Below are positions 1 through 44,417 of a stretch of DNA of 64,000 nt, in pieces. The position numbers and the translations under genes were made by a program. The stretch covers positions 44,613 to 108,612 of the IMG/VR virus record IMGVR_UViG_3300024303_000028; one strand, written 5' to 3'. The DNA is from a virus. Lineage: Duplodnaviria; Heunggongvirae; Uroviricota; Caudoviricetes. A model generated the notes under the pieces. The model was not told the DNA's origin. It saw nothing but the letters and a program-made list of their open reading frames with translations, and searched no databases. The first letter of the stretch is position 1, and each line of letters starts with the position of its first letter.

Positions 1-2
1 GC

Positions 3-3000
3 GTGCGTAGTGCTGTTGAATTCTTCTACGCATTTACTCACCGGTATACCATGATGGATAATCGAGCGAAAAATACGTTCTGGCATTTTGCCAAGACCGG
101 CGTTTTCCGCGAAGTGACAAAGCCCGTTGTCGAGTTGCTGCATGTGTACTGCGAGAAGGTCGGAGAAGATTATGTTACGACAGCCGATACGGCAATCGAT
201 ACTTCCAAGACCTACTACACAGAGTACGCGTTTGATCTATGGGACTATGATAACGATACTGCTCTTGGTATCGACAACAATGGCTCTCTGAGCTTCCCCT
301 ATGGTCGAGAGGATCGCGATTACAACATCGAAGGCAACCCCGCCAGCGGTTATGTTTTCAACGGTGCGCAGAGCACTTTCTGGTGTCGTCTCCGCGATTT
401 GCTGCCCGGCGAAATCACCAGCACGTTCAATTCTGTTGAGGCGGAATGCTTTAGCGCAAGCAACCTGATTAACGAGTTTGACGCATTCCAGGAATGCTAC
501 CCCGAGGAGCTGTGGAGGCTGGATGTAACTCGTAAGTACATTCGTACTTTTACCGGTCTGTCTGTTGATAACTCCAAGCCCAAGCACGATACTTCATACC
601 TTGGATCTATGATGCAGGGACGCAAGAAGTATCAGCGCCGGCAGTGGGAGCGCGATCAGGAAATGTATTTTGGTACGATGAACCTGATGAATAATGTGGT
701 CGGCGATAGCAACCGTATCACATTCCGCTGCTTCACTCCGAGTGGCGATGATATTGCGGTCAGGCCGGACTACACACTGCGAATGGTTCCGTTCTCCGAT
801 ATGTACCTGTCTGTCATGTTCGGTAACGGCAACACCCGTCAGGTGCGTGCGAAGGCAGGACAGGAATATACTATCGAATGTCCGCTGTCCTTCATGGACG
901 ATACGCAGGTGACAATTTACGGTGCGAACCGTATTCAGGCTCTGAACGACTTGTCTGCATGCTATATCGCAGCGAACAACTTCTCAATGGCTACCAAGCT
1001 TCGCAAGCTTGTTGTCGGTAATACAACCGAGGGTTACAGCAATCCGAAGCTGACGTCTCTGACGCTTGGTTCAAACAAGTTGCTTCAGGAGCTGGATATC
1101 CGTAATTGCGAGAACCTAACCGGCGCTCTGAATTTGTCTCAGTGTAGTAACCTTGTGAAGCTGCTTGCAGAAGGAACGAGCCTAACCGGCGTCACCTTCG
1201 CGACAAACGGTAAGGTGGAGACTGCCCACCTGCCGGATACTGTCAATACGCTGATCATGCGCAACCTGAATAATCTGACCGACTTCCAGATGGACCTCGA
1301 TTCTCTGGAGACGCTTACTTTGCAGGGCGGCGCTATCGACGGACTTGACCTAATCAATCAGAGTATTGACACACTTCGCGTGCTGAACTTGTATGATATT
1401 GACTGGACGCTGCCTGATACTACGTTGCTGAATGAAATGCTGGATTTATTCTACAGCATGGTGACTGGTAAGGTGTACGTGTCTGGCGCAATTCGTCAAC
1501 AGGAGCTACTGCAGTATGAAGAAGCGTGGGACGATTTGACTGTCAGCTATAACGCAGACAACATCGTCACCCAATACTTAGCGACATACGTGAATGCAGA
1601 TGGCGAAGTGCTGCGCGAGATCTATGTAGACCGTGGCGCTCTGCCTCCAGATCCCGTGGAATTAGGTCTAATCGCAACGCCGACAATGGAAAGCACCGCC
1701 CAATACAATTTCACCTTCAGCGGGTGGGACGGACTTGACACTGAGATGCTTGCTCCGCGTACGATCACAGCTACTTACGCTACTACTGTGCGTACATATA
1801 CTGTGACTTGGTACGCCCGTGCAGGTCTACCGCTAACTTCTGTATCCGCGGAATATGGCGCTGATGTGACTTACCCAGGTGAGACACCAACCAATACCAG
1901 CGAGGAAAGTACCTATGTGTACAATCTGTTCGCTGGATGGAATAAGTCTACCGGCTTCATTACCGGAGATACGGATGTGTATGCGATCTGGGATCGTGCC
2001 GAGCTACCTGCTGTCGGTAAAGATATGAAGGATATGACCCCGGGCGAACTATTCGCCGTCACCAGCTCCGGTAAGACTGCGAATTATTTCGTCAAGAAGG
2101 ACTATATCGACATCGACATCGGTCATGATTTTGCATTTGAGAATGTTGAGTCGCAACTACTCGCCGAGAATCATGTGCTTGATGGAACCATGTCTACCGT
2201 CATCGATACTGGTATCAAGCTGTTCGGAGAAGATGCGCGTTCCTTCACGCTGGCGATCTCCTACAAGTATAATGATACTACGGCGGATGGCACGATTGCA
2301 TCCTGTTTCGAGTACGACGGCTCTGAGGGATTCCGGTTGCGCTACAATAGCAATCCCGGCGTTCAGTGGGGCGATAAGAACGTTGCTGTCGGCTATCAGA
2401 AGCAGATGGAAATGCTTGTTGTTCGCTGGAACAAGGATGACCCGCTGCGCTTGCACGTGTATGCATACAACGAGCCGAGCGCACAGTTCTCTAACGCCTA
2501 TGTAAATGCACAGCTGATTCGCTCCAGGGCGACGAGCAGTGAGGCAACCTTGATCCTTGGTGGCTTCCGCTTCCTGGGTGACGGCGTGCTGGACGGATTC
2601 GCAAAGGGAAAGATCCACTGGTGTAAGATCTGGTTCGACGATCTCGGCCATACCAACTCCCAGCAACTGGCTTCCTGGCCACATGAAACATGGCGTGCAG
2701 AGTATGGCGGAACGGGTTGTTACTACCTTGCGCCCGATGGTACAAGCCAGAAGACCAACGCCACCTTCATTCTGAATAACCTTGTTGCAGATCGTACGAA
2801 GCGTATGAATCCGACGAGCACCAACGCCGGCGGTTGGGACAAGTGTGAGATGCGAACCTTCTTGAATGAAAAGCTGATCGACGCATTCCCCACTTCATGG
2901 CGTACAATGCTGAAGCAAGTCAAGGTAAATGCTACAGCGGGTGAGCAATCACACGATATTGTTGTATCAAAGGACTTTGTCCATCTGGCTGCTCGCCAGG

Positions 3001-3377
3001 AGATTGAGGCAAACCCGGGCGCTCCGTATTCCAGTGAGGGTTCGTATATCTTCAACTGGTATACAAATGATCCGTCTCGAATCAAGTTCCAAGGGCTGAT
3101 CGTCAAAGAGAATCCGCAATACTTCTTGTCAGATACTGACCCACGCGACATCACAACAAACAATGTGCAGGAGGGAGACATCTGGTGTAAGTCTACGGAA
3201 AGCAACCGAGGTTACATGCTGGTCAATGGTGAATGGATTGCCGCTATCGGCTGGTGGGAGCGTTCGCCTCTTGCGGCCAATTCCACGAACTTCTGTGGTG
3301 TGAACTATGTCGGTTGGTCCGGCAGCTACAGCCTTGCCGCGAACACCATTGGCGTTTGCCCCTGCTTCCATATCTAA
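3..3377 (+). CDS. Phage tail fibre / receptor-binding protein and DGR target gene; the 5' end probably continues upstream of the window; C-terminal variable region
   Basis: 1124-aa ORF with alternative GTG start at the window edge. Leucine-rich-repeat-like N-terminal segments (LTSLTLGSNKLLQELDIRNCENLTGALNLSQCSNLVKLL). The last ~43 codons (3241-3368) are a near-copy of the downstream template repeat. Confidence 0.8.
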   Translation: MRSAVEFFYAFTHRYTMMDNRAKNTFWHFAKTGVFREVTKPVVELLHVYCEKVGEDYVTTADTAIDTSKTYYTEYAFDLWDYDNDTALGIDNNGSLSFPYGREDRDYNIEGNPASGYVFNGAQSTFWCRLRDLLPGEITSTFNSVEAECFSASNLINEFDAFQECYPEELWRLDVTRKYIRTFTGLSVDNSKPKHDTSYLGSMMQGRKKYQRRQWERDQEMYFGTMNLMNNVVGDSNRITFRCFTPSGDDIAVRPDYTLRMVPFSDMYLSVMFGNGNTRQVRAKAGQEYTIECPLSFMDDTQVTIYGANRIQALNDLSACYIAANNFSMATKLRKLVVGNTTEGYSNPKLTSLTLGSNKLLQELDIRNCENLTGALNLSQCSNLVKLLAEGTSLTGVTFATNGKVETAHLPDTVNTLIMRNLNNLTDFQMDLDSLETLTLQGGAIDGLDLINQSIDTLRVLNLYDIDWTLPDTTLLNEMLDLFYSMVTGKVYVSGAIRQQELLQYEEAWDDLTVSYNADNIVTQYLATYVNADGEVLREIYVDRGALPPDPVELGLIATPTMESTAQYNFTFSGWDGLDTEMLAPRTITATYATTVRTYTVTWYARAGLPLTSVSAEYGADVTYPGETPTNTSEESTYVYNLFAGWNKSTGFITGDTDVYAIWDRAELPAVGKDMKDMTPGELFAVTSSGKTANYFVKKDYIDIDIGHDFAFENVESQLLAENHVLDGTMSTVIDTGIKLFGEDARSFTLAISYKYNDTTADGTIASCFEYDGSEGFRLRYNSNPGVQWGDKNVAVGYQKQMEMLVVRWNKDDPLRLHVYAYNEPSAQFSNAYVNAQLIRSRATSSEATLILGGFRFLGDGVLDGFAKGKIHWCKIWFDDLGHTNSQQLASWPHETWRAEYGGTGCYYLAPDGTSQKTNATFILNNLVADRTKRMNPTSTNAGGWDKCEMRTFLNEKLIDAFPTSWRTMLKQVKVNATAGEQSHDIVVSKDFVHLAARQEIEANPGAPYSSEGSYIFNWYTNDPSRIKFQGLIVKENPQYFLSDTDPRDITTNNVQEGDIWCKSTESNRGYMLVNGEWIAAIGWWERSPLAANSTNFCGVNYVGWSGSYSLAANTIGVCPCFHI
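3241..3368 (+). repeat. DGR variable region (VR) at the 3' end of the tail-fibre gene
   Basis: 128 nt aligned base-for-base to TR 4303-4430. The 18 mismatches all fall at positions where TR carries A (A->G/T/C). Both copies end in the shared GC-rich segment GGCGTTTGCCCCTG. Confidence 0.9.
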
Positions 3378-3472
3378 TATCTTTTCCGGGAGGGCGTGGA
3401 CGGCCCATGCTCTCCCTTATCTTCGTGCTGGCGGCTTGCCGTCCAGCACATCATGAAAACGAGGAATACAAT

Positions 3473-4276
3473 ATGTCGGTACATCGATCTAAACGGCGCA
3501 TATCGCGCTTTGAACTTGAACATTCGTTTTCGATCTTATATGCACATACGATCGAACAGCTATCGCACGTTAGTAAACGTCGGCGGAAGTGGCTCTGCCC
3601 TGCGATTGCTGAGCTTATGAATCACATGTACGACTTGCTGATGCGTGCATCAATCCGCATCAGCAGAAAAGGTATCGTAGACGAGACACGCTCAGAATTG
3701 ATTGTGTCCACCTTAAAGGACTTGTCGGCACTACAAAAACCATTATGGGTTTTGTGGAATGTCTGCGAATACCCTACCAAGAAAATGATCCGATGGATTA
3801 CTCTGATCAACGAGGCGAAGAGAATCATGCTGTATGAGTTAGCCAAGGACACTACGGATGTGAAGGATTTTACTATATATACCCTTGATTGGGATAAGGT
3901 GAAACGTGCAAAGTTTTTGCATATGATGAGCAAGCTACATCGCTACACTCATGGCAAAGTGGTGCATGCCCAGAGCAAGTACGATTCTACATCCGGCTCA
4001 ATGCTGATCGATCTTGTTGACGAGGCTTTCTATCAATTGATTCGTGCGAATGCCCGTATCCCTACGACTCGCGCAGAATACATTGAACGTCGTGACTGTA
4101 TCAACCAGGCTATCGTATGTTTGAGAGAGATGAACCGGCCTTTGCTGATGTATTTCAACACGCAACACTATAGCGAGAGCACTATGTGTGAGTGGTCTGA
4201 AATGCTGAGGCAAGAAATCAATATGCTGATTGCATTATCAAAATCTGATCAGAAACGTTTTGATTCCTTGAAATAA
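3473..4276 (+). CDS. avd: DGR accessory protein (Avd-like candidate, unusually long at 268 aa)
   Basis: Start chosen at the ATG 7 nt after RBS GAGGAA (3461-3466); the ORF-track start at 3233 would overlap the VR. Sits between target gene and TR as in canonical mtd-avd-TR-rt cassettes; helical-looking basic protein. Family assignment is by position only. Confidence 0.5.
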   Translation: MSVHRSKRRISRFELEHSFSILYAHTIEQLSHVSKRRRKWLCPAIAELMNHMYDLLMRASIRISRKGIVDETRSELIVSTLKDLSALQKPLWVLWNVCEYPTKKMIRWITLINEAKRIMLYELAKDTTDVKDFTIYTLDWDKVKRAKFLHMMSKLHRYTHGKVVHAQSKYDSTSGSMLIDLVDEAFYQLIRANARIPTTRAEYIERRDCINQAIVCLREMNRPLLMYFNTQHYSESTMCEWSEMLRQEINMLIALSKSDQKRFDSLK

Positions 4277-4302
4277 ACAACATACAGGTTATGTTCTGCC
4301 AT

Positions 4303-4430
4303 CCGCTATCAACTGGTGGGAGCGTTCGCCTAATGCGGCCAATTCCACGAACTTCTGTAATGTGAACAATAACGGTTGGTCCGACAACAACAACAATGCC
4401 ACGAACACCAATGGCGTTTGCCCCTGATTC
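4303..4430 (+). repeat. DGR template repeat (TR)
   Basis: Invariant copy of the VR; contains in-frame AAC AAC AAC AAC AAT codon run (Asn codons, typical of DGR templates); intergenic between avd-like gene and RT. Confidence 0.9.
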
Positions 4431-4725
4431 TCATATGAATAGTAACCACGTAATGAGGGTGAAGTTTATTTCTTGACGTAAGTCGACGACGACGCTATGA
4501 GAAGGAGAGCATGACCTTTCACAGATACTGTGACAAATATTACATGCCCATGATGCAATGGGCGTATGCTATGACAGCATTCCGTACGAATGGGTGGACG
4601 CTTCTTGCATGGACTGCTGGCTGATCAGCGCCACGGTTTTCATACCCAAACATTCCGGCTACACATGCTGATTGATTTCAAGCCGGACGGAGTAACATCA
4701 AAAACGAATCGGAGGATCACAAGGA

Positions 4726-6015
4726 TTGAATAATGCTGAACGTATCCAAGCGCGAATTCAGCGGGATAAGCAACGCAAGCTTGCCCGACGAATGGAGCGC
4801 AACAAGGAATACGACAATTTTGATCGCGTACTAACCATGCAGCATTACATGGAAGCGCTGAAGAAATGCAGACGCGGCGTTGACTGGAAGGGCAGTGTCC
4901 AGCAATACTCGCACAACTGCATCACCACAATCAAAGATACTATTGTTATGTTGCAGAAGGGAAAGCTGCCAAAGCTTGCCAACCCTAACGAAATCACCCT
5001 ATACGAACGTGGCAAACTGCGTGTTATCACGCCCATCATTATCGATGACAGAATGACACAGCGAGTATTGTGTGATTACTCCTTGGCACCAATGGTACAA
5101 GGGTCTTTGATTTACGATAATGGTGCGAGTATGCAGGGCAAAGGAGTCACGTTTGCCAGAGATCGTATGGATAAGCAACTCCGGAGTGCGATACGCAAAT
5201 GGGGCTCTGACTTCTATGTACTTGCTTTCGACTTCAAAAATTTCTTCGGCAGCATTCCTCATCAAGTGTGTCTGCAGGAGCTGGAACGGATATACACGGA
5301 TAAGCGCATCATTGATTTAGTGATGGGGATTATCAAATCATACCAGGTAATTCCTGCAAGCAAGATCAAAGATGAAAGGCTTCGACAGAAATACATGGAC
5401 GGGGTCGAAAAGAACCGGGCCGTTGGTATTTGTCTTGGAAGTCAGATCTCTCAGATTATGGCTTTGACTGTGCCGAATAAGCTCGATCACTATGTTAAGG
5501 ACGTTCGTTCTGTTAAGTATTACGCACGATATATGGACGACGGCGTGTTATTCTCTGACAGCAAAGAGTATCTGATGGATATCTACCGAGGTATGCAGGT
5601 AATTGCCAAGCAACTTGGGTTGCATTTCAATCAGAAGAAAACACGGATCGTCAAAATCACGAAGGGATTTACGTTCCTTAAAATCAAATATCGTGTGGTA
5701 TGCGGTAAGGTTATCAAGACACTGACGCGCAGCGGAACGGTTAGGATGCGACGCAAGTTGAAAAAGTTTAGGGGACTTGTTGATCGCGGGCGGATTATGA
5801 TGGATGACGTATTTGCATCCATGCAATCCTGGCTATCTCACACCAAGTATGCCAGGTCATATCGTACTAAGAAGAACATGGTCAATCTATATAACAACCT
5901 GTTTGACGGATACAGGTTGACAAAGAAATTTTCTCACACGAAAGGAGGAAGACAATATGCTGTACTACAAGCTGATCGACGGAACCAATATCGTTGGTGT
6001 TGGGACTTCGCTTGA
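4726..6015 (+). CDS. DGR reverse transcriptase
   Basis: TTG start 9 nt after RBS GGAGGA. RT catalytic motif ARYMDDGVLFSD (YxDD). DGR-type motif VGICLGSQISQ ([ILV]GxxxSQ instead of group-II QGxxxSP). Motif GLHFNQKKTRIV. Confidence 0.9.
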   Translation: MNNAERIQARIQRDKQRKLARRMERNKEYDNFDRVLTMQHYMEALKKCRRGVDWKGSVQQYSHNCITTIKDTIVMLQKGKLPKLANPNEITLYERGKLRVITPIIIDDRMTQRVLCDYSLAPMVQGSLIYDNGASMQGKGVTFARDRMDKQLRSAIRKWGSDFYVLAFDFKNFFGSIPHQVCLQELERIYTDKRIIDLVMGIIKSYQVIPASKIKDERLRQKYMDGVEKNRAVGICLGSQISQIMALTVPNKLDHYVKDVRSVKYYARYMDDGVLFSDSKEYLMDIYRGMQVIAKQLGLHFNQKKTRIVKITKGFTFLKIKYRVVCGKVIKTLTRSGTVRMRRKLKKFRGLVDRGRIMMDDVFASMQSWLSHTKYARSYRTKKNMVNLYNNLFDGYRLTKKFSHTKGGRQYAVLQADRRNQYRWCWDFA

Positions 6016-6703
6016 TATGCTGTGCTTCCAGCGCAAGCATCGTATTCTGTTAGGTTGTGATGTATCCGCGGCTCAGTATATTTCCTACAACGGGAAACTA
6101 TATCGTGCGATTTGGATGGCTCCTGAAACAGACCACCAGGAATGCACTCTGTTGGATGTAATCGAAATCGACTATACCGAGTATGATGCACTTCGGAAGG
6201 CATTAGAGGTCGATCAGGAAATCACAGTCGAGACGCCGAGCGATACGCAACCCGAAGCCGGCCTTCCTTCAGACGCAACGGTGGAATATGTGCGTGATAT
6301 GAAGATTGCGGAAATGAGTATCGCGTGTAATTCAGCCATTGAAAGCGGGTTCGACACCATATTGAGTGATGGTAACGTATATCATTTCTCATTAACTACA
6401 CAGGATCAGATTAACCTTCTGTCTCTATCTACTCTGATTGCTAACGGCATGACATCCATTCCATACCATGCAGATGGTGCGCTTTGCACTTATTACAGCG
6501 TTCAAGATATGATGCAGATTATCACGACTGCCACGCAGTATAAGACATATCATACATCGTACTTTAACAGCCTGCGAAATTGGATCAATGCCATGACTGA
6601 AATCTCTGAGATTTATGGTGTCAGTTACGGCGTTACTGTTCCGGAGGAATATTGTTCTGTCGTGTTGTCAGAGCTAAACAAGGTCTCACGGGTATCGGAG
6701 TGA
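5957..6703 (+). CDS. hypothetical protein
   Basis: 248-aa ORF with strong RBS AAAGGAGGAAG 6 nt upstream of ATG; overlaps the RT 3' end by 59 nt. Confidence 0.6.
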   Translation: MLYYKLIDGTNIVGVGTSLDMLCFQRKHRILLGCDVSAAQYISYNGKLYRAIWMAPETDHQECTLLDVIEIDYTEYDALRKALEVDQEITVETPSDTQPEAGLPSDATVEYVRDMKIAEMSIACNSAIESGFDTILSDGNVYHFSLTTQDQINLLSLSTLIANGMTSIPYHADGALCTYYSVQDMMQIITTATQYKTYHTSYFNSLRNWINAMTEISEIYGVSYGVTVPEEYCSVVLSELNKVSRVSE

Positions 6704-6709
6704 TGCCAT

Positions 6710-7141
6710 ATGAGGAACATATGTAAACACATGCTGCTGTTCGCTATGGGCGGCAGCATTTATTTATGCATTGAAATCATTTGGCGATGGCTGACGCAAA
6801 GCGCCCCTACACATTGGGCAATGTTTATCGTGGGTGGTGTTGTATTCCTACTTCTGGGATGGATCAACGAAGGACTCCCATGGACGATGCCGTTTGTATG
6901 GCAGTGTTTGCTTGGGACAATTACAGTTCTCTTTGTTGAATTTGTCAGCGGATGCATTTTGAATATTTGGCTTGGTCTTGCGATCTGGGATTATTCCGCG
7001 ATGCCGCTGAACATCCTCGGGCAAATCTGCCCACAGTTTGCACTCGCCTGGTTTGTGCTATCCGGTGTAGGGATCGTCGTAGACGATTGGCTAAGATACC
7101 ATCTGTTTCGTGAAGAACGCCCACATTATACGCTGCTTTGA
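6710..7141 (+). CDS. integral membrane protein (4 predicted TM helices)
   Basis: 143 aa, hydrophobic segments LLFAMGGSIYLCIEIIW, AMFIVGGVVFLLLGWI, LLGTITVLFVEFVSGCIL, FALAWFVLSGVGIVV. Confidence 0.55.
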   Translation: MRNICKHMLLFAMGGSIYLCIEIIWRWLTQSAPTHWAMFIVGGVVFLLLGWINEGLPWTMPFVWQCLLGTITVLFVEFVSGCILNIWLGLAIWDYSAMPLNILGQICPQFALAWFVLSGVGIVVDDWLRYHLFREERPHYTLL

Positions 7142-7165
7142 GCAGAAAGGAACGGAGGCGTAGAT

Positions 7166-7570
7166 ATGAAACGAATGATTATTATTGCAGCGGTCATTAT
7201 TTTCGTTGTCATGATCGCTGTCATCCACGTCTGTCCCGGCGGTCTGTACACTTGTGGTATGCTCCGTATTCCAGAGGCAGGACTTGATGTAGAGCTAACA
7301 ACTTCTATACATGGCTCTGATTGCGGGTGCTGCGGCGTATTGTACCAGGGAGGCGTGACTTATACTGACGACGACATGGAAGGTATACAGCTATATACCA
7401 TGGTATATCTGGCTATCATTGATTATAGTGTGACAGTTTTAGAATATGTGGGAAGCGAACCATGTCTTCGTTTTGGCAACCTGCTAATTGGGAACCATGG
7501 AATCATCAAAACAGACGGCGATTTGCTTGTTGTCAATGGTTGCGTTGTGTACCGTTTTGTACGGTTGTAA
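7166..7570 (+). CDS. hypothetical protein with N-terminal signal/anchor
   Basis: MKRMIIIAAVIIFVVMIAVIHV hydrophobic N-terminus; Cys-rich middle (GSDCGCCGV). Confidence 0.45.
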   Translation: MKRMIIIAAVIIFVVMIAVIHVCPGGLYTCGMLRIPEAGLDVELTTSIHGSDCGCCGVLYQGGVTYTDDDMEGIQLYTMVYLAIIDYSVTVLEYVGSEPCLRFGNLLIGNHGIIKTDGDLLVVNGCVVYRFVRL

Positions 7571-7648
7571 GCGTGAAAATTGATAATAAAAACTAAGTTT
7601 TATGTAGGTGGTTTTTTACATCAAGATAGAGAGGAAGATACATATCAC

Positions 7649-8098
7649 ATGGAATGGATACAACGAATTGGTTCAGTTCTCGGATATATCGCCACCGCTA
7701 TTGGTCTTTTCACAGTGATCAAGAGCGGTATCCTTAAGAAGGCGAAGCAGTACGTCGAGGAAACTGCGTGTACTGAAGAAAGTGATAAGATCCATCATGA
7801 TCTGGAGGAGCGTATGAACTCTATTGAGGATAAGTTCAGCGAGTTCTTAGATCGTGATACGGAGTTTAAGGAAAATTGGGAAGAACATATTAAGACCCAG
7901 CAACTTGTAGATCGCAAGGTGATGGCAGACATTATTGAACGTTTATATTACCAGAATCGTGATCACAAAACATTGGACGATAATGAGTTCCGCAGGTTGA
8001 CTGAGGTATATGAGATCTATCATAATTCTCCTGTTAACGGCAACTCCTATATCTCTGAGTTGTACCACACAATGCTGACATGGGAGCGTGTCCACTAA
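7649..8098 (+). CDS. hypothetical membrane-anchored protein (lysis-cassette neighbour)
   Basis: Start moved to the ATG after RBS GAGGAAG; N-terminal TM (IGSVLGYIATAIGLFTVI) then charged coiled region. Confidence 0.45.
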   Translation: MEWIQRIGSVLGYIATAIGLFTVIKSGILKKAKQYVEETACTEESDKIHHDLEERMNSIEDKFSEFLDRDTEFKENWEEHIKTQQLVDRKVMADIIERLYYQNRDHKTLDDNEFRRLTEVYEIYHNSPVNGNSYISELYHTMLTWERVH

Positions 8099-8384: not shown

Positions 8385-9419
8385 GTGAATGAATTGATTC
8401 AAAAGGTGCTGGACATTGCGTTAGGCGAAGTAGGTTATCTTGAAAAAGAAACCTACGACCAGCTCGATCATGCAACTGCTAACGCCGGCGATGAGAACTT
8501 CACTAAATACCAAAGAGACCTCGCAAAGCTTAGCTATTTTAACGGGTCAAAAAAGGGAGTTGCATGGTGTGCTGTATTCGTGTGCTGGTGTTTCGTCCAA
8601 GTGATGGGCGAAGCGCTAGCAAAATCATTGCTTTGTCAACCCGATAAGGGAAATTGTGGTGCTGGGTGTAACTCACAGATGAATTACTACAAAAGCAAGA
8701 AGTGCTGGCATACCAGCAATCCGCAACCTGGTGATCAGATTATTTTCTGGAATAGTGCAAAGAAGGAGGGCTCTCACACCGGCATCGTATACAAAGTTGA
8801 TAAGACCTATGTTTACACGGTGGAGGGGAACACTTCCGGAGCAAGCGGCGTGATTGCCAACGGCGGCGGCGTGTGCAGCAAAAAGTATAAGCTGACCAAT
8901 ACCCGCATCGCCGGCTACGGTAGGCCGCGGTGGGAACTGGCTGTTGAGGTTGAATCAGATGTTACGCCCGTTCAGCCCGAAACCGAAAAGCCAGAGTCGG
9001 TAGAGATTCCTAACATGGTAACCGGCAATGCATGGGTACATGTGACCAGCGGATCTACAGTTAACTACCGTACCGGTCCGAGCACATCATATAAGCTTGT
9101 GTCTGCTATGCCACGCATTAAGCAGGGTGAGCAGGTCTACATCAAGACTAGCGACAGCACATGGGCTGCGGTTGAGTACAAGGGGCATCGCGGGTACGTT
9201 ATGATGAAGTATCTGACGCAAGAGCATCAAGATAATGACGCGACTATCTCTCCTGTAGAGCCGCAACCGATTACCTACACTACGGTTCAGGGAGATACTC
9301 TGTGGAAGATCTCTAGCAAGTTCCTTGGGAAGGGTAATCAGTATAAGAAGATCATGCAGGCGAACGGTATGAAGAATACTATCATTCGCCCTGGTATGGT
9401 CTTGAAGATTCCGGCATAA
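8385..9419 (+). CDS. endolysin: CHAP amidase/peptidase + bacterial SH3 + LysM
   Basis: GTG start 8 nt after AGGAGG. CHAP Cys/His pair (GVAWCAVFVCW ... GSHTGIVYKV ... VEGNTSG). SH3-like segment (GNAWVHVTSGSTVNYRTGPSTSYKLV). C-terminal LysM (YTTVQGDTLWKISSKFLG...MVLKIP). Confidence 0.85.
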   Translation: MNELIQKVLDIALGEVGYLEKETYDQLDHATANAGDENFTKYQRDLAKLSYFNGSKKGVAWCAVFVCWCFVQVMGEALAKSLLCQPDKGNCGAGCNSQMNYYKSKKCWHTSNPQPGDQIIFWNSAKKEGSHTGIVYKVDKTYVYTVEGNTSGASGVIANGGGVCSKKYKLTNTRIAGYGRPRWELAVEVESDVTPVQPETEKPESVEIPNMVTGNAWVHVTSGSTVNYRTGPSTSYKLVSAMPRIKQGEQVYIKTSDSTWAAVEYKGHRGYVMMKYLTQEHQDNDATISPVEPQPITYTTVQGDTLWKISSKFLGKGNQYKKIMQANGMKNTIIRPGMVLKIPA

Positions 9420-9441
9420 TCCGGTTAGTGGGTAAACAAAA

Positions 9442-9471
9442 AGGCTGGCTACGCACTACGCGCTGCCAGCC
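9442..9471 (+). terminator. stem-loop after the endolysin gene (weak terminator candidate)
   Basis: GGCTGGCtacgcactacgcgctGCCAGCC hairpin right after the endolysin stop; no strong T-tract. Confidence 0.35.
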
Positions 9472-9482
9472 CATAATTACCA

Positions 9483-9511
9483 TTGACACCAACCCAATGG
9501 TATGTTAAGAT
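9483..9511 (+). promoter_or_regulatory. sigma70-like promoter candidate for the integrase
   Basis: TTGACA (9483-9488), 17-nt spacer, TAAGAT (9506-9511); 120 nt upstream of the int start. Confidence 0.45.
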
Positions 9512-9629
9512 TTACTTAGGTTCATACCGCCGTTAATCGGCGTAAAGTCGAGGTATCACCCGACGCAAAGCAGATGGCAATCACGCCGTCTTGTTAGCGT
9601 TGGGTGATTTTTTTTACGGAGGTACTATC

Positions 9630-10838
9630 ATGGCAGGAGTTAGCGTTGAGAAACGCGGTAACAAGTGGCGGTATCGGTTCGATACCTCGTCTATGGACGG
9701 CAAACGTGCGCGAATCAGTAAGGGCGGATTTAACACAGAGAAGGAGGCGATGGCCGCCGGGATCAAGCACCTTGCCGAGTTTAACTCGACAGGTGTAATC
9801 TTTACCCCGTCTGAGATGTCGTACGGAGACTACTTAGCCGAGTGGATGGAGAAATACTGCCGACCTAATCTTAAACCAGAGACGTTGGTAAACTACGAAA
9901 AGCGAATCAGAATCCACATTAAGCCGAAACTGGGCAAGCACAAACTCAAGAACATAACGGCCTCTGTGATGCAGGAGCTGATCAACGAGATGTTCCAGAA
10001 TGGATATTCACGGAATACTCTGGCAACAATCCGCGGTATCCTGTCATCAAGTCTTGACTATGCAGTAGAACCGATGCGGTACATCGACAAGAATCCTGTG
10101 GTCTATGTACGGCTTCCTTCTGTTCGTGTGAAAAGCCAGGTTCCTACAAGATCTGAGCCCCATGTGTATATTACACCAGAACAAATGGAGGCAATATTTA
10201 AGCGCTTCCCAGAGAAGACTTCCCCTCACATCCCTTTGCAATTCGGCTATCGGTGCGGTTTGCGTATTGGTGAGGCGTTCGCTGTTTGTTGGAGCGATAT
10301 CGACTTCGAGAATAAGAAGTTAACCATCAATCGACAGATCCAGTATAACAGCCCACGTAAACTATGGTACTTCACTGAGCCAAAGTATGAATCTTCCAGA
10401 ACGATTGATCTTGATGATGAGATGGTTGCTCTACTTCTTCGTGAAAGGGAGAGACAAGAAAAGTCGAAAGCATACCACGCAGATGATTATCATCAGCAGT
10501 ACGAGGGGGCGTCTCGTCTTATCAACGACAAGAAGGATGGAGACCCTATCGACTTGGTTGCGGTACGTCCGGATGGTAGTTTAATTTCTCCGCGGGTGAT
10601 GTTGCACACCTCTTCGATTATCCACAAGGATCTTCACTTCCCGGAGTTCGACTTCCATTCATTGCGCCATACGCATACGTCTATGATGTTAGCAGCTGGA
10701 GCACCGATCAAATATGTGCAATATCGATTGGGTCATAAGCGACCAGACGTGACGTTGCGGGTGTATCAACACATGACTGAAGTTGTGGAGCGAAACGGAC
10801 AGGACGTACTTAGCGAGGTATTTAGGAAATCAGAGTAA
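9630..10838 (+). CDS. int: tyrosine site-specific integrase
   Basis: ATG after RBS ACGGAGG. N-terminal SAM-like domain. C-terminal catalytic signature HSLRHTHTSMMLAAGAPIKYVQYRLGHKRPDVTLRVYQHM (R..HxxR..Y). Confidence 0.9.
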   Translation: MAGVSVEKRGNKWRYRFDTSSMDGKRARISKGGFNTEKEAMAAGIKHLAEFNSTGVIFTPSEMSYGDYLAEWMEKYCRPNLKPETLVNYEKRIRIHIKPKLGKHKLKNITASVMQELINEMFQNGYSRNTLATIRGILSSSLDYAVEPMRYIDKNPVVYVRLPSVRVKSQVPTRSEPHVYITPEQMEAIFKRFPEKTSPHIPLQFGYRCGLRIGEAFAVCWSDIDFENKKLTINRQIQYNSPRKLWYFTEPKYESSRTIDLDDEMVALLLRERERQEKSKAYHADDYHQQYEGASRLINDKKDGDPIDLVAVRPDGSLISPRVMLHTSSIIHKDLHFPEFDFHSLRHTHTSMMLAAGAPIKYVQYRLGHKRPDVTLRVYQHMTEVVERNGQDVLSEVFRKSE

Positions 10839-15291: not shown

Positions 15292-15965
15292 AATTCGTGC
15301 TCACACGGACCAGCCCATTGCATTGCCATAGCTTTGGCGATGCCTGGGAATGTCTTGCTCCGCGTTTTCTGGTCGCGCTCTCTACGCCCTCGGAATCTTC
15401 GATAGTTTCCATAAGCGTCTTTGTGGCCTCCGTTTACATATGGTTCGTGATTTTCTATAACACACGTCGGCTCAAGTGGATCAACACCCTTCAGCCATAA
15501 GCACGTACGCTTGCTGTATGGGTGCCCGTGATGATAAGGTTGAATAATTTGATCATATGGTGGTAAGTTAACAAGCTTCATCGGAACTGGGTTTTCAATA
15601 ACAACCCGGTCACAATCTGCATGATAAAAGGCCAAGAAAAACTCCTTGGCCTTCATCGCCTTCTCGAAGCGTTCTTGTTGAATGACGCCGTTGACACGCA
15701 TCCTGACTGCACCGGCATTTGAAAGATAAGTACATGGAGGATGCGCTATAATCATATCCCATTTTCCCGGGATACTGTGCCATTTCGAATCCATCGTCTG
15801 GAATCTGCAACGTCCGTTAATAAGAGGGAGGACATCCCCGATGATATGCCATTCGGGGTGTCCTCCGGAACATTGTTGAATATCGCATGAATACGCCTCG
15901 TGGCCTAATTCACGCATGGCGATGGTAATGGCTTGAGATTCCTCACATGCAATTAGTACTCTCAT
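15273..15965 (-). CDS. DNA cytosine-C5 methyltransferase-like protein with divergent motif I
   Basis: Start set at MRVLIACEES. Motif IV-like HPPCTYLSNAG (catalytic Pro-Cys). Motif VI-like VVIENPVPM (ENV). The usual SAM-binding FxGxGG position reads IACEESQ. Confidence 0.5.
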   Translation of the reverse strand: MRVLIACEESQAITIAMRELGHEAYSCDIQQCSGGHPEWHIIGDVLPLINGRCRFQTMDSKWHSIPGKWDMIIAHPPCTYLSNAGAVRMRVNGVIQQERFEKAMKAKEFFLAFYHADCDRVVIENPVPMKLVNLPPYDQIIQPYHHGHPYSKRTCLWLKGVDPLEPTCVIENHEPYVNGGHKDAYGNYRRFRGRRERDQKTRSKTFPGIAKAMAMQWAGPCEHEFCQEAA

Positions 15966-18225
15966 AGCTCTCCTGTGAATCAATGGTATGACGAACGCGA
16001 TCACAAACCTCAGTCTGCTTGCCATGATTGAAACGGCGATAATCAGAAGACAGATAGCCGGTTACCCGACGCAATTGAGTAATATTTTCACTTCCGCATT
16101 CAGGACAGGTACTGTCAAACTCGGACTGGAAACCGCAGTCGTTGCACGTGTCCAGCGGGAAATTGAAGGCGAGGTATGGGATATCAAGTTTTTGGAACGC
16201 ATAGTCGATAATGTCTTCAACGGCCTTATGGTTAGACATGAGGCTTGAATCACACTCGATATAGGTGATTGTTCCGCCAGTACAAAGCTTTGTAAACGGC
16301 GCTTCGATACGGAGCTTCTCGTAGATGCCGACCTTTTCCCACACAGGAACGTGGTGTGAGTTTGTCAGGTACTCACGCTCGGTTACATTAGGAATAATGC
16401 CGTACTGATCACGGAGCTTCTTCATTGCGGTGAAGCAAAGATTCTCCGCGGGCGTTGCGTAGCAACTACCATTCAGATTGTTACGTTCACTAAACTCCTG
16501 AGCGTATAGATTGATGCGGCGTACAACACTATATGCGAACTCCCAGACCTCGCGATCGTAGACATGACTCTTGCCGAACAGCGCTTGACACATTTCGGCA
16601 ATGCCAATAAAGCCAAACGCAAACGTTCCGTGCTTCAGCGCTTCAGACACGTCGTCCTGACACTTATCAGCATCCTTGATCGTGCCGTTCTGATACATAA
16701 AGGGAGCCGCCTTCGGTGACTGCGCCTTCATGATCTCAAAGCGCTTCAGGTGTGCACGCTCAACCATTTGTAGTGTAGACTCTAGAGCAGCCCAGAAACC
16801 TTCCAGGTCGGGCTCGGTACGTTCTCCGCGGCAAATGCCATACTCAATTCCTAGCTTGGGGAGGATAATCGTAATGGGCGTGTTATTTCCACGACCTACC
16901 CGAGTATATCCCAGACCATTGCGGTCGTAGCCGATCAAGGTGCGGCAGCCCATGGTGCTGAAGATTGTATCGGGATCATTCGGATCCTCATGTGCTTCTG
17001 ACCAGTCGCCATTGCACCAGTTCGGGAAGATGCGTTTCGGCATTGATTCAATGCCCTTTAGCTTCTCACGGTAGTTCGGGTCACCCGGAGCAGCATTAAC
17101 GCCTTTCTTATAAGAAAAGATACTGATAGGGAAAATGCTGGTCGTATGGTGCTTGCCGACACCTTCGATGCTTGCCTGAAGGAACCAGCGGGTAACGAGC
17201 TTGCCTTCAGGAGTCGTATCGCGGCCATAGTTCAATGAACTGAATGGCACCTGAGCGCCTGCACGGGATTCAAGCGTTCCAAGATTGTGCCATAGCGCCT
17301 GCGCTGCCTGCATACCCTCACGCTCTAACATGTCTTTGGCATATGTATAAGCGTCGGAATAAGAACATAGCAATGCTTGGTTATCAATGGTAATGACGTT
17401 ATCAAACAGCGTCGTGTATGCTTCCTCAATTTCGTCATCGCTGCAAGCATAAATGTACTTCATGCCGTCGCGGTGGTGACGACGGAAACTCATGGCGACA
17501 TAAGGCGCCAAGTCGGTGTCAATGTGGGCAGAAGCCACACCACCGTACTGACATTGGCTCTGCAACTGCATCGCAACAGCGACCAGTTGACACGCGGTAG
17601 AGAAACTCGTGGGAGGGCGCACATCACAATTACGCGTTGCAAATCCCTCGGTAAAAAGTTTCTTAAAGTCGATGAATAGGCAATTGTGAGCGCCTACGTT
17701 GTAGTGATCCAGATCGTGCTGATAGATCAGACCTCCCTTATGAGCTTCTGCTACATCAGCATCCATATTGTACTCAAGAGCAATGTTCTTCTGCAGAATT
17801 CCCGCAGCTTCATTCTTGCGGCCACCAAATGTATGCTCGTCCACATTGGCATTTGCGTTATCAATGCTCTTGCCGGAAGTCTTCTCCTGAATCTGCTGGA
17901 CGGTGGTATTGCGCAGGTCGCGTTGGCGAGATCGTTCAGCGCGATACAGGATGTACTGCTTCGCCACATCCTTGCGATCAGAGGACATAAGATTGCTCTC
18001 TACCATGTCCTGAACTAGCTCTACAGTTGGAATGCTCTGCATCGCTTCGCATTCTGCATAAATCTTTTGGGCAATAGCGAACGCAAGAGCTTCATCAACT
18101 CCGGCTTCCGTTTCCCGCATAGCCCGTGAGATAGCGGAAATAATTCGCGTCTTCTGGAAGAGGACGGTGCGCCCATCCCTCTTGAGAATTTGCATTGGTT
18201 TATCTTGTGGAAAAAGTATTGTCAT
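15943..18225 (-). CDS. nrdD: anaerobic ribonucleoside-triphosphate reductase
   Basis: 760 aa; N-terminal ATP-cone-like segment. C-terminal Zn-ribbon (CNDCGF...CPECG). Glycyl-radical motif RRVTGYLS. Confidence 0.9.
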   Translation of the reverse strand: MTILFPQDKPMQILKRDGRTVLFQKTRIISAISRAMRETEAGVDEALAFAIAQKIYAECEAMQSIPTVELVQDMVESNLMSSDRKDVAKQYILYRAERSRQRDLRNTTVQQIQEKTSGKSIDNANANVDEHTFGGRKNEAAGILQKNIALEYNMDADVAEAHKGGLIYQHDLDHYNVGAHNCLFIDFKKLFTEGFATRNCDVRPPTSFSTACQLVAVAMQLQSQCQYGGVASAHIDTDLAPYVAMSFRRHHRDGMKYIYACSDDEIEEAYTTLFDNVITIDNQALLCSYSDAYTYAKDMLEREGMQAAQALWHNLGTLESRAGAQVPFSSLNYGRDTTPEGKLVTRWFLQASIEGVGKHHTTSIFPISIFSYKKGVNAAPGDPNYREKLKGIESMPKRIFPNWCNGDWSEAHEDPNDPDTIFSTMGCRTLIGYDRNGLGYTRVGRGNNTPITIILPKLGIEYGICRGERTEPDLEGFWAALESTLQMVERAHLKRFEIMKAQSPKAAPFMYQNGTIKDADKCQDDVSEALKHGTFAFGFIGIAEMCQALFGKSHVYDREVWEFAYSVVRRINLYAQEFSERNNLNGSCYATPAENLCFTAMKKLRDQYGIIPNVTEREYLTNSHHVPVWEKVGIYEKLRIEAPFTKLCTGGTITYIECDSSLMSNHKAVEDIIDYAFQKLDIPYLAFNFPLDTCNDCGFQSEFDSTCPECGSENITQLRRVTGYLSSDYRRFNHGKQTEVCDRVRHTIDSQESYESTNCM

Positions 18226-21155: not shown

Positions 21156-24100
21156 TCATTCAGATTCCTCCTCGAACACTTCTTGTTCACCAGGATAATG
21201 TTTACGATATCCTGTCATAGTAAAATATTGACCTTCTCTGGTATAACCCGTACATGTGATGACGTCACCTTTGTCGATCGGCTCTTTGTCATAGACTCGA
21301 TTGAACACGGTAAAACGTGTTTCAATCCCGCTTCCGATGGACTGTGTGATGATGCTCCATCCGAATTGCTTTCCATCCTTTTTCCTATGAAGCGGATAGA
21401 TCTCTTTCACGTAAAGCAATGGACGATCTTCATCACGCCCAGTCACATATCCGGAATAACCCATTGCTTCATTGAAATATCTGATTTTGGAAATCACATC
21501 AAGGTCCGGTAGATTCAGACCGAGGATCCTTTCTTCACACTCACGGAGAATCGAACGGATATCCAGAATCGTATAACTCGCGGATTCCTTCCCGGACTTA
21601 GTCACGGATGTACTATACTTCTGGACAATCGGCTCTGCATATGAACCAGCTACCTTCTCTTTCTTGATCTGCTTCGCCTCGCCGCATTTGAAGAAATCAA
21701 AAACACCAACGATGCGTTCAAGCTCTCGCTGGTTTCCGAACTTCCTGAAGAAGTCAATATGTAGCAGGATATCAATCTGGCGATGATCTACGCCGCCAAC
21801 AGCCGTAAGATCCATAAGCACGTCCATAAAATGAGTATACTCTTTTTCTGAACCAAGACTATGCAAAATCTTTGATGCCTTCGTGCTCATGAACTTAATC
21901 GACGAGATCCCCTTCGCGATGGTCTTGTCCTCCGGAGAGCATGCGTATTCTCCCCCGGAGATACCGAATCGAGGAGATGTAACAGAAATACCATACTGGC
22001 GAGCGGTTGTCGTACCATTATGGATATCCTCATCATTTGCAGCGTTATTCAGAAATGCAGTGATGAACTCTGCCGGATAGTAATACCTGTAATACGCACA
22101 CAAATAACCGAGCAAACAGTAAGCAATGGAATGATTATACCCGAATTGATAACTTGCTGAGTCCTCGATGATCTGAAGGAATTCTTTTGCTTCCTCCTCC
22201 GCCTCGTTGCGTGGGCGTGGAGACTTTCGACAGTAGCCCTCAAGAATGCTTGGCATCGCCTTATCCAGTCGATCCTTCTGCTTTCGTCCAATCGCCCGTC
22301 GAATGTTATCTGCTTCGCTACCGGAAAGACCGCAAATCTGTTGAAGGAACTTAATCGTGTCCTCCTGATAAATCAGGTAGCCAAGGTTCTCCTTCAGAAG
22401 GTCATCGATAATTTCTGATGGATTATGATGCTGCATTCTGGCCAGCAGTTGGTCGCGATACGATGCTCCTGACGGGCGAATACACGCCGTCACTAGTGAC
22501 ATATCAAAAATACTTTGTGGCCTGAATTTCTTCAGGCTTTCAAAAGCATATCCGCCTTCAAACTGAAAGATGCCGCCGGGCGACTTCAGCATATCCTGCC
22601 ACACAGCCTTGTCTTCCCAGTCGATCTCATGAGAACGAGGATAAGGGATACCGATCAAGCGGCATGTATCACGGATAACCGTCACAGTTTTTAGAATCAG
22701 GAAATCATATTTCGCCAGACCCACCTCATGGGCTTCGTCCATATCCATCACTAGACATAGATCGTCGTCCTTATAAAAGCAACCGAATTCCTGCTGAAGA
22801 TCCACAGGAGAGATAACGATGCCGGCGGGATGTACAGACTGGCTCGACTTCGTGCCATGAAGACCATCATAATAATAAAAGACTTCCGGATGCGCCTTCC
22901 TTGCAGCATCTGGATCAGACGAGTATTCCTTCTTCATCTTGTCAATACGTTTCAGATGATAAGGATTGTCTGGATCGATGGTGATAGACTGCCAGTTCAG
23001 ACGCTTACTGTTTTCGAGAAATTTGGCGAGCTTGTCCGGATGGTTCTTTTCCTCCCACCGTTTACGAAGTGCGCCGCCGATCGCATCGATAGTTGCCAGA
23101 TCTGCGAGTGTGCCGTATGCACCGACTCGGGCGGTGTACTTCTTACCAAAACGTCCGATGATGTGTTTGAAGATGGCCGGACGATCTGTGTCGATAACAT
23201 CGACGTCGATATCACCGATCTCTTCTCGATCTTCATTACAAAAGCGAGAGAATACGGTATGCCATGTTTCTGGATTCAGGTCGATAACATCGGTAACATA
23301 TGCGATTCGTGATCCGCCTACAGAGCCTCTGGCAGGACCAACCGGAATATTGTTTTCTCTGCACCATCCCAGCAGCTCTGCCATGGAAAGCATGAAGCCA
23401 TCCATATGAAGCTTTCGGAAAACGCGGAGTTCTTCAGCGATTGCATCGCGGAAAGCGGATTCCTGATGACGAGGAATCACGCCCGTATTTAGCTTCTCCG
23501 TCAACTTCTCTTCGATGAGCGCTTCAAATTTTTGCGAATCGTTCTCGTGCGTTCCGTACAGAATTGGGTACTTGATGCGGCGGTCAAGCTCAAATTCTTC
23601 TACAGAGTCTGCCATGCGATTTGTCGCATCGATCGCGTCGAGGTATACTTCCTTCGGCAACGCACCTTGAAGTCTGAACATCTCTTCCAGCTCCTCACGG
23701 GTGTGCCAAGTCAGGTCGAAATCATCTTCATTTCCATAACTCTTATCCTTATACTTCATTAGGATACTTCTGCATTCCGCCTTATAGCGAGAGGAGTTAT
23801 GGGTGTCTGTGCCGGCAATTAGTTGCTTGTTGAACTCCAAAGCGAGTTGCAACAAGAACGAGTTGTATTCCCGCTGATCATCACAGATGTGAGGCTGGAC
23901 TTCAAGATAGTCATATCGTTCGACCAGTCGATTGAACATATGATGATCCCTTGGCAACTTGGCCAGTGGTGATGCAAGACACGCGCTGGTTGTGATAATG
24001 TTATCGGACAGAGACAGGAATTCTTCAAACGAAATACGATTGGTGTAGTAAAAATGGTGTTCGTCAGATGAAAGAGCAATCAGCTCATTCAGCTCCCGAA

Positions 24101-24377: not shown

Positions 24378-24844
24378 GCAGCAATACCCTCTGAGCATTC
24401 TTCCACAGGTTTGCCGTCTTCCCACTTCCTGAAATCAAAATTCATCCAATACTCCGGATAATTTGATAGTTTGGAAAGAACGTCGTCGCCGAAGTAGAAT
24501 GAAACGGCCGGCCTGGATCCAAGCCACCACGAGAAATCCCGCTCCTTCCAAGGATGCTTTTCAAGTTCCTTTGCGGGGATAACCAGGATACATGGAACAA
24601 TATTATGTATCATGTCTTCCTTTGTATAGCCGCAGTTCAATACACCATCGCATGGTTCAAGCACAGCACAATCGAAGGGGAAATACACATCGACCTGTCC
24701 TGAAACGAATCGCTCGTATACCGTACCTGCATTGCAATCATACGGCGCATCGTTCCAGTCATCGCCGTAGTATTCTTGTAGGTCGTCATCGCCCAAGAAA
24801 AAACGGACGATGTTACCCTTTCTCTCGAAGTCGATAATCTTCAT
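24374..24844 (-). CDS. hypothetical protein
   Basis: 156 aa; its stop abuts the dnaE start. Confidence 0.45.
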   Translation of the reverse strand: MKIIDFERKGNIVRFFLGDDDLQEYYGDDWNDAPYDCNAGTVYERFVSGQVDVYFPFDCAVLEPCDGVLNCGYTKEDMIHNIVPCILVIPAKELEKHPWKERDFSWWLGSRPAVSFYFGDDVLSKLSNYPEYWMNFDFRKWEDGKPVEECSEGIAA

Positions 24845-43577: not shown

Positions 43578-43604
43578 ATCCTATACCTCCTTGTGTTCAA
43601 TGAG

Positions 43605-43675
43605 AGCGCATGACGGGGATCGAACCCGCGCTGCCTGCTTGGAAGGCAGGTGTGCTGCCGCTACACCACATGCGC
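43605..43675 (-). tRNA. tRNA-Gly (anticodon UCC)
   Basis: Acceptor GCGCATG/CATGCGC, anticodon arm CCTGC-CTTCCAA-GCAGG, T-arm GCGGG-TTCGATC-CCCGT; cloverleaf folded by hand. Confidence 0.75.
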
Positions 43676-43689
43676 AAAAAGATCTACCC

Positions 43690-44274: not shown

Positions 44275-44413
44275 ACCAAGACATGTGCTGATGATATGCA
44301 GGACTGATCAAGAGCTTCAAAATGTTCTCGATACTTGAGTCGCTCCCGTCGATCATACTGATCCACATTTCCACATCCGGTAATAAACCTTGGAATGAGA
44401 CGACGATCTTCAT
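44045..44413 (-). CDS. helix-turn-helix DNA-binding protein
   Basis: C-terminal HTH ICQVAKLCDISRPTVYKYIRIL; partially overlaps the previous ORF. Confidence 0.45.
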   Translation of the reverse strand: MKIVVSFQGLLPDVEMWISMIDGSDSSIENILKLLISPAYHQHMSWFVDSEDHQENVSVKNSRPGRPPTTLAKIPSKFKRIYPRYKNGELNICQVAKLCDISRPTVYKYIRILEGEQDAGSD

Positions 44414-44417
44414 TTTC

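Follow-up and report, generated by a model that had tools for sequence, protein, structure and literature searches.

Evidence for a BPP-1-type diversity-generating retroelement with a putative doubled Avd protein and an RT-2 spacer RNA in a large gut-Clostridia phage

We analyzed a 64,000-nucleotide stretch of a Caudoviricetes genome (positions 44,613 to 108,612 of IMG/VR record IMGVR_UViG_3300024303_000028), which we refer to as the window. One region of it is almost certainly a complete diversity-generating retroelement (DGR) of the type known from Bordetella phage BPP-1, with a tail-protein target gene, avd, the template repeat (TR), and the gene for a reverse transcriptase (RT) in that order. 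The element is carried by a large, integrase-encoding phage of gut Clostridia. All coordinates refer to the 64-kb window, L-numbers (L001 to L021) denote the relative contigs used in comparisons, and the features of the element are collected in Table 1. An initial annotation of the window had proposed a DGR with the order target, accessory gene, TR, and RT. This order was confirmed, with the addition of a structured spacer RNA between TR and RT, and the interpretation was supported in that each defining feature that can be tested on sequence was found. Gut viromes are rich in phage DGRs that act on tail receptor-binding domains, and such systems are well known; the element itself is therefore unsurprising. 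It belongs to a known kind of system, and its one real architectural variation is an Avd that is fused or paired.

The variable repeat (VR) at 3241-3368 and the TR at 4303-4430 align without gaps over 128 nt (offset 1062) with 18 mismatches, and the similarity breaks off sharply at either end. At 18 of 18 mismatches the TR base is an adenine (hypergeometric P = 1.2e-12, with 35 adenines among the 128 TR nucleotides). Our re-alignment therefore agrees with the base-for-base alignment that had been annotated, and tabulation by TR base bore out the claim that mismatches occur only where the downstream copy carries A; each of the substitution strings that had been listed was also reproduced. The differences between the repeats are thus restricted to TR adenines, as is characteristic of a DGR. 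Self-BLAST across the whole window recovered no other VR/TR-like pair, and a scan of both strands of the 64 kb with the non-adenine positions of the TR detected no second (remote) VR.

The placement of the adenines fits a coding function. The VR makes up the final 43 codons of the target open reading frame (ORF), and the TR begins 26 nt past the accessory stop codon. All 34 mutable TR adenines fall at codon position 1 or 2, distributed over 20 codons, 14 of which are AAY, and no stop codon can be reached by mutating them. The VR thus lies within coding sequence, and the adenines occupy TR positions at which they can change amino acids without termination, as is expected of DGRs. The theoretical repertoire amounts to ~3e20 DNA variants and ~1.2e20 protein variants at up to 20 codons.

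Not every mismatch, however, is attributable to mutagenesis. The final one, TR A4427 against VR C3365, is the identical A/C pair in 15 of 15 DGRs with a VR/TR pair, including that of Roseburia phage Shimadzu. Because the pair is shared by all 15, we regard it as a fixed difference, leaving 17 mutagenic differences; the reading of the mismatches as mutagenesis stands for those 17 of 18. Copying the TR base into the target would create a TGA stop, and for this reason the pair is best read as a predicted fixed difference between IMH* and IMH (the initiation of mutagenic homing elements of TR and VR), lying 3' of the transfer boundary. The sequence 3' of the conserved GGCGTTTGCCCC is TGCTTCCATATC in the VR and TGATTCTCATAT in the TR. 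Thus, the 3' ends of the repeats are nonidentical past a G/C-rich element and inverted repeats follow the VR, both of which are DGR features. The two hairpins downstream of the VR (3388-3416 and 3425-3449) scored z = -3.95 against shuffled sequences. At the position of the first, which looks like a terminator or a cruciform, a hairpin of other sequence is present in L001, L004, and most relatives. The CTGGCGGC...GCCGCC core of the second is kept across relatives; this hairpin could act as a cruciform that enhances homing, or it could regulate avd. A G/C hairpin of the form ATCTGGCGGC-loop-GCCGCC precedes the accessory start in nearly all of L002 to L018, at varying distances from the VR.

Relatives of the element were found through its accessory protein. 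They included Logan and JGI contigs, IMG/VR contigs of 136-171 kb, and metagenome-assembled genomes (MAGs) of Eubacteriales, Clostridia, and Ruminococcus. Wherever the locus of a relative was complete, the order of target, accessory gene, TR, and RT was kept. All of the relatives with a VR/TR pair (14/14) were A-biased, with 11-21 mismatches at TR adenines and three or fewer elsewhere, and the non-adenine mismatches were mostly located in the IMH-like tail of the alignment. When the window was compared to L001, the target, accessory, and RT genes had diverged by 6-8% and the spacer RNA by 2.4%, while the TR differed at 1 of 128 positions (0.8%). The VRs of the two differed at 20 positions, all templated by TR adenines, and at 0 of the 93 sites not templated by adenine (P = 2e-4 at the average rate). 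Likewise, L012 and L014, at 98.6% identity, have TRs that do not differ at all, and the 19 sites at which their VRs differ are all TR-adenine positions (19/19). The TR is therefore constant and the VR variable among close relatives, which is the directional transfer that defines a DGR.

Variation confined to VR positions that are templated by TR adenines is what would be expected if a conserved TR had been copied into the VR repeatedly, in one direction only, and with mutagenesis at adenines. Sequencing of the VR from a population had been suggested as a test in the initial annotation; our comparison of relatives can be regarded as its comparative equivalent, and it supports recent activity of the element. 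Many genomic DGRs have been inactivated (Wu et al. 2018), and one relative, L003, holds a decayed remnant of the same family, in which the target and the accessory gene are truncated and the RT is missing. By extension, the window could contain a relic that is structurally complete but inactive in this genome, its VR frozen. We consider this unlikely. No ORF is disrupted and the RT retains its catalytic motifs, conservation is highest in the TR and the spacer RNA relative to the diverged flanks, the non-adenine sites of the VR are identical to the TR, and the VRs of close relatives differ solely at TR-adenine sites. The L003 remnant (9248-10567; GCA_965328685.1, a 352-kb contig of a bacterial genome) consists of a DUF6273 fragment of 211 aa and an accessory gene truncated to 188 aa, without RT and without a TR/VR pair, and it adjoins an integrase and NrdD/NrdG.

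We found that the accessory gene encodes a protein of unusual architecture. Avd is essential. In BPP-1, it forms a homopentameric barrel that positions the template:primer duplex. When the N-terminal and C-terminal halves of the window's accessory protein were compared by profile-profile alignment, they matched with 97.3% probability (E = 2.3e-11) over 119 columns. BLASTP of the same two halves gave no alignment, and the duplication is visible by profile-profile comparison only. PHROG 3206 (phrog_3206, "Avd protein of DGR") matched 14 of 18 full-length members of the family (best E = 8.6e-9; residues 2-118 in the window) and also matched isolated C-terminal halves in 10 of 12 cases (best E = 2.1e-6), so that both halves have homology to Avd profiles. 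An AlphaFold model of the protein (predicted local distance difference test score [pLDDT], 85; predicted template modeling score, 0.83) contained two sets of four long helices, which is the four-helix-bundle fold of bAvd and of the "23S rRNA IVS / S23" proteins. Typical Avd proteins are small (~110-130 aa), basic, single-bundle protomers of a homopentamer; the window's protein is basic, but it has 267 aa and two bundles per chain. The accessory protein had no match to any Pfam family, including those related to Avd, or in NCBIfam or PADLOC. In the PDB, a sequence search with the accessory profile returned no matches, and the C-half profile returned chance-level matches only.

Relatives of the doubled form were found in metagenomes. 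In a metagenomic library of 50%-identity cluster representatives, the accessory family had 292 matches at E <= 1e-3 and 85 at E <= 1e-30, and most of these 85 representatives were full-length proteins of 260-290 aa. The accessory ORF was unbroken in the window and in the fetched relatives having the whole gene. Among 50,697 GenBank phages, tblastn detected no homolog of the doubled Avd, and megablast with positions 1-8000 of the window returned no match. One relative carries the two halves separately. In L021 (1167-1967), the doubled Avd is split into two adjacent genes of 129 aa and 133 aa, located downstream of a 196-aa DUF6273 target. The first of these genes ends with a stop codon, the second has its own ribosome-binding site, and the N-half gene aligned with the family profile at positions 1-124 (98.7% probability). 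Since the split form keeps both halves, both paralogues are retained whether fused or split. That each is kept with its own ribosome-binding site argues that both may well be needed.

On the basis of these profile matches, the accessory protein is evidently a fusion of two diverged Avd paralogues, which presumably act together as the Avd scaffold. The lack of BLASTP similarity between the halves, the failure of Pfam to recognize either one, and the occurrence of a two-gene form in L021 could instead mean that the 267-aa protein is not a functional doubled Avd, either because only the N-terminal bundle acts, with unrelated helices added as the C-terminal half, or because the ORF is an artifact of two merged genes. 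This is very improbable given that the halves match by profile, that isolated C-terminal halves are recognized by the Avd PHROG, that most of the closest representatives are full-length, that a single continuous ORF recurs in the whole-gene relatives, and that the split form keeps both halves, each with its own ribosome-binding site. In their survey, Wu et al. (2018) reported a mean Avd pI (isoelectric point) of 9.5, described avd genes as "of similar length," and listed one DGR with two avd genes. The literature that we searched contained no mention of a fused or tandem Avd, though prior notice elsewhere is possible. On a MAG contig (L019), positions 1-603 hold part of an RT that has the motifs IGDQCSQ and YMDD. 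It is located upstream of a doubled-Avd gene and could reflect either two DGRs in tandem or another order of genes.

The RT was assigned to the DGR type by its motifs ([LIV]GxxxSQ and YxDD) and by its best PDB relative. It contains LGSQISQ at residues 237-243 and YMDD at 269-272. The YMDD motif had been annotated correctly; the second motif had been given as [IV]GxxxSQ, and the actual sequence begins with leucine. The best solved relative was bRT of the Bordetella phage DGR (PDB 8ub7_A; E = 2.3e-13), in which IGSLTSQ aligns with LGSQISQ. The 3' end of the RT gene overlaps the next gene by 59 nt.

The spacer between TR and RT (4431-4725, 295 nt) contains an RNA that scored above the gathering threshold of the Rfam RT-2 model, of which the window is a marginal member. 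RT-2 was also found between TR and RT at or above gathering in L001, L004, L005, L006, and L013, and below gathering in L009, L010, L012, and L019. Scores were 22-81.5 bits in relatives and 144.9 bits in Roseburia phage Shimadzu. This placement between TR and RT was thus observed in the window and ten relatives, and Shimadzu has, in addition, an annotated Avd, a TR/VR pair, and an RT. Weinberg et al. (2017) described RT-2 among 19 "RT" motifs, tied only RT-10 to a DGR (that of BPP-1), and speculated that other RT motifs serve other DGRs. In the literature that we searched, we found nothing on RT-2 as a DGR RNA.

Alignments of 12-14 spacers revealed an invariant GAGAAGGA (14 loci) and several covarying helices. 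Two of these helices are long-range duplexes, predicted to connect the spacer to the flanks of the TR. The first pairs the TR 3' end at 4428-4435 (TTCTCATA) with spacer 4496-4503 (TATGAGAA). The second, of 12 bp, pairs spacer 4506-4517, which starts two nucleotides after the strand of the first duplex, with 4286-4297; it has compensatory changes in 7 pairs, with 95% of cells paired (RNAalifold, pair counts). In alignment A6, a structure made up of both closing duplexes and two hairpins had 91.8% of cells paired, compared to 43-54% with slid partners, and a covariation score of 0.548, compared to no more than 0.169. The observed values were reached in 0 of 500 shuffles. The TR:spacer duplex covaries in L007 (CGCGC/GCGCG) and in Shimadzu (TTCCAC/GTGGAA). 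These results support a model in which the TR would be looped by two adjacent duplexes that close it, an arrangement known from the BPP-1 ribonucleoprotein. In the cryo-electron microscopy (cryo-EM) structure of the latter, TR117-129 pairs with Sp47-56, synthesis is primed by Sp A56, and templating begins at TR G117. The analogous candidates in the window are A4503 for priming and A4427 for the first base to be copied; cis-priming and a role of the upstream duplex in stopping synthesis are likewise what we infer from BPP-1. A promoter scan returned 9 matches versus 7.3 expected, which is no better than chance. One candidate promoter for the DGR RNA, at 4268-4295, was rejected, as the RNA would begin inside the upstream duplex that covariation supports.

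With these components in place, the notion of an ordinary diverged direct repeat, produced by duplication or gene conversion, with an A bias arising by chance or composition next to an unrelated RT, is effectively refuted: although the window does contain a second, unrelated RT of retron type and the presence of an RT alone proves little, a chance bias would have to account for mismatches at adenine alone (P ~1e-12), for the recurrence of this pattern in 14 independent relatives, for a repeat that keeps the reading frame and whose adenines occupy only the first and second codon positions, and for an Avd, an RT-2 RNA, and a DGR-type RT exactly between or beside the repeats.

The target of the element is a giant tail protein. 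The ORF starts at base 3 of the window, which is an artifact of the window's left edge cutting the gene. L001, which shares 92% nucleotide identity with the window over 9.4 kb, carries the full gene of 2,630 aa, and base 1 of the window corresponds to approximately codon 1,505. The target had been annotated as a 1124-aa tail-fiber gene with the VR in its last 43 codons; the position of the VR holds, while the length applies only to the cut ORF, the full protein being ~2,630 aa as judged by L001. "Tail fiber" is also an approximate label, since the gene occupies the Tal position after Dit. In L001, the target gene directly follows the distal tail protein Dit (phrog_33), upstream of which are a very long ORF (at least 1,298 aa) and a short 120-aa ORF. 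Because of this gene order around Dit, we place the target, on sequence grounds, in the Tal or central-fiber position of a siphovirus-type tail module. Pfam DUF6273 covers the last ~205 residues of the target. Reports on Faecalibacterium prophages and on phages nd4 and nd12 describe DUF6273 as a DGR target with a C-lectin-like fold (PMC10743442, PMC11792537). For the target C terminus, a profile search of the PDB gave no match, and the Foldseek matches obtained with a poor AlphaFold2 model were meaningless. Further downstream are a DUF4376 or tail-fiber-like gene, a CHAP-SH3-LysM endolysin, and the integrase.

Taken together, these features suggest the following mechanism. An RNA would be transcribed from at least position 4286, through the TR (4303-4430) and the RT-2 spacer, to approximately 4715. 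Spacer 4496-4517 would pair with the TR 3' end and with 4286-4297, closing the TR into a loop. The RT, bound to the doubled Avd, would prime complementary DNA (cDNA) synthesis in cis from the spacer strand, with A4503 as the candidate primer and A4427 as the first template base, and would copy the TR faithfully save opposite adenines. The cDNA would then replace the VR, from 3241 to ~3350, within the last 43 codons of the tail protein, and the 3' limit of replacement would be set by the G/C-rich IMH-like element at 3351-3362. As a result, up to 20 DUF6273 codons could be varied, giving ~1e20 possible proteins with no stop possible. This variation is presumed to change receptor binding.

Several points weigh against this account. 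The comparisons among relatives show activity only since the lineages diverged, not present-day activity in this genome. The TR:spacer duplex is mostly invariant and thus has thinner covariation support than the other helices, consisting of one covarying pair in alignment A6 plus the variants in L007 and Shimadzu. The assignments of priming site, first template base, and transcript ends are putative. Finally, the C-lectin fold of the target is putative as well, the AlphaFold2 model of the C-terminal 229 aa, built with 5 homologs, having a pLDDT of 58.

The element shares much with the prototype from BPP-1 (mtd-avd-TR-brt). In both, the order is target, avd, TR, and RT, a gene for tail receptor binding has the VR at its 3' end, and the mismatches are adenine-specific. 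The RTs are homologous, with IGSLTSQ in BPP-1 and LGSQISQ in the window in addition to YMDD. In both, the TR and VR have nonidentical 3' ends (IMH*/IMH) after a G/C-rich element, inverted repeats are located downstream of the VR, and the spacer has two adjacent duplexes, one to the TR 3' end and the other to sequence upstream of the TR. In contrast, the BPP-1 Avd is a 128-aa single bundle that forms a homopentamer, whereas the window encodes the 267-aa tandem duplication. The spacer is RT-10 of ~140 nt in BPP-1, as opposed to RT-2 of ~295 nt, and the upstream duplex strand lies inside avd in BPP-1 but in the gap between avd and TR in the window. The target is the 381-aa Mtd in BPP-1 and a protein of ~2,630 aa with DUF6273 in the window. 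The RT sequences are only distantly related, and the host of the window phage is a Gram-positive anaerobe.

Roseburia phage Shimadzu (LR596903.1) has the closest annotated phage RT (36% identity). Its gene order is the same, with tail fiber, Avd, and RT annotated and an RT-2 RNA between TR and RT. Its TR and VR are A-biased, with the fixed endings CTGATTC (TR) and CTGCTTC (VR), and the same two closing duplexes are formed by other sequence, the upstream one as a perfect 12-bp helix. Shimadzu differs from the window in having a single 136-aa Avd, whose one resemblance to the window protein is a weak similarity to the C-terminal half (hhalign E = 1.6e-4). It also differs in its 431-aa target and in being a 45-kb phage, compared to 136-171 kb for the window's relatives. 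In Shimadzu (L020 8302-8353; record positions 24284-24335), we also noted a subthreshold match to the type-P1 twister ribozyme near the integrase end of this phage (56.5 bits versus a gathering score of 67.2; E = 7e-11). The Faecalibacterium prophages Lelie, Roos, and Pioen and phages nd4 and nd12 likewise carry the VR in the C-terminal part of a tail-associated DUF6273 protein, and their RTs are homologous (28-32% identity), but their targets are far smaller and tblastn found no tandem-Avd match in them. Within the survey of Wu et al. (2018), the window fits architecture B1 (avd-TR-RT) and the size of its target is within the range of 44-2,697 aa; in contrast, no fused double Avd was described there.

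These comparisons bear on how DGR particles are built. We would give even odds to a broader view with two parts. First, the DGRs of this lineage would use two diverged Avd paralogues, usually in one 265-aa chain and sometimes as two adjacent genes, such that the scaffold geometry or stoichiometry of the RT-Avd-RNA particle would be unlike those of the BPP-1 homopentamer. Second, RT-2 would be the cis-priming spacer RNA of an entire branch of DGRs in Clostridia phages, keeping the closed TR loop of BPP-1 without sequence similarity to RT-10. A two-bundle Avd chain raises the question of how the scaffold is built, and it is a natural comparison for structural work and for DGR engineering. Together, the window and Shimadzu would give the orphan Rfam family RT-2 a function, as a DGR spacer RNA, where Weinberg et al. 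(2017) only speculated. Independently of the cryo-EM work on BPP-1, the covariation supports conservation of the two-duplex RNA layout in a distant lineage of Gram-positive phages, and a specific candidate priming adenosine is proposed that is testable.

Table 1. Features of the retroelement in the 64-kb window
Feature	Position	Strand	Evidence or remarks
Target gene, 3' part (1,124 codons + stop)	3-3377	+	ORF list; L001 relative; phrog_14959 match
DUF6273 domain with VR (target residues 920-1124)	2760-3374	+	Pfam PF19789, E = 4.5e-10
VR	3241-3368	+	Mutagenized sites seen within 3249-3349; alignment with TR and comparison to L001
IMH-like VR 3' end	3351-3373	+	G/C-rich GGCGTTTGCCCC, then TGCTTCCATATC; conserved in all relatives
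Hairpin, 12 bp + T-rich tail	3388-3416	+	11 nt past target stop; terminator- or cruciform-like
G/C-rich hairpin GTGCTGGCGGCTTGCCGTCCAGCAC	3425-3449	+	Directly upstream of accessory gene; core CTGGCGGC...GCCGCC
Accessory gene, putative tandem-duplicated Avd (267 aa, pI 9.5)	3473-4276	+	Two four-helix bundles, residues ~1-125 and ~140-265
Upstream-of-TR segment AGGTTATGTTCT	4286-4297	+	Pairs with spacer 4506-4517 (predicted)
TR	4303-4430	+	34 mutable adenines in 20 codons; 14 AAY; zero at codon position 3
TR 3' end, IMH*-like TTCTCATA	4428-4435	+	Template strand of predicted TR:spacer duplex
Rfam RF03077 RT-2 RNA, structured TR-RT spacer	4474-4715	+	47.5 bits versus gathering 40; E = 7e-8; full model 1-222
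Spacer segment TATGAGAA-GG-AGAGCATGACCT	4496-4517	+	First 8 nt pair with TR 3' end, last 12 nt with 4286-4297 (predicted)
Covarying hairpins in RT-2 spacer	4519-4533, 4546-4563, 4566-4580	+	Spacer alignment
DGR reverse transcriptase (429 aa)	4726-6015	+	TTG start 10 nt after GGAGG; RVT_1, E = 2.5e-17; phrog_1423, E = 2e-64

Elsewhere in the window, a second RT of 396 aa is encoded on the minus strand at 54581-55771. It is of retron type, scoring 188 bits with the NCBIfam retron St85 family (cutoff, 235) and E = 4.7e-51 with PADLOC RT_II-A. We rejected it as part of a second DGR on account of its type and the absence of an A-biased repeat in its vicinity. The 305 nt upstream of this gene (55772-56076) folded no better than shuffled sequences (z = -1.4), and we identified no msr/msd RNA. 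Approximately 1 kb downstream of it is an 85-nt imperfect palindrome with 82% self-complementarity (53519-53603), and two genes away, on the minus strand, a 224-aa protein (56755-57429) has an ~70-residue match to PADLOC E1-E2 (Cap2-like; E = 8.5e-20).

The window also encodes NrdD (15943-18225), PolIII alpha (21156-24425), DnaB, and DnaG, as well as a tRNA cluster on the minus strand (43604-52126) with 11 genes for Gly, Leu (three), Ala, Ile(tat), Thr (two), Ser, Gln, and Pro. The tRNA cluster, together with NrdD, PolIII alpha, DnaB, and DnaG, points to a large phage genome.

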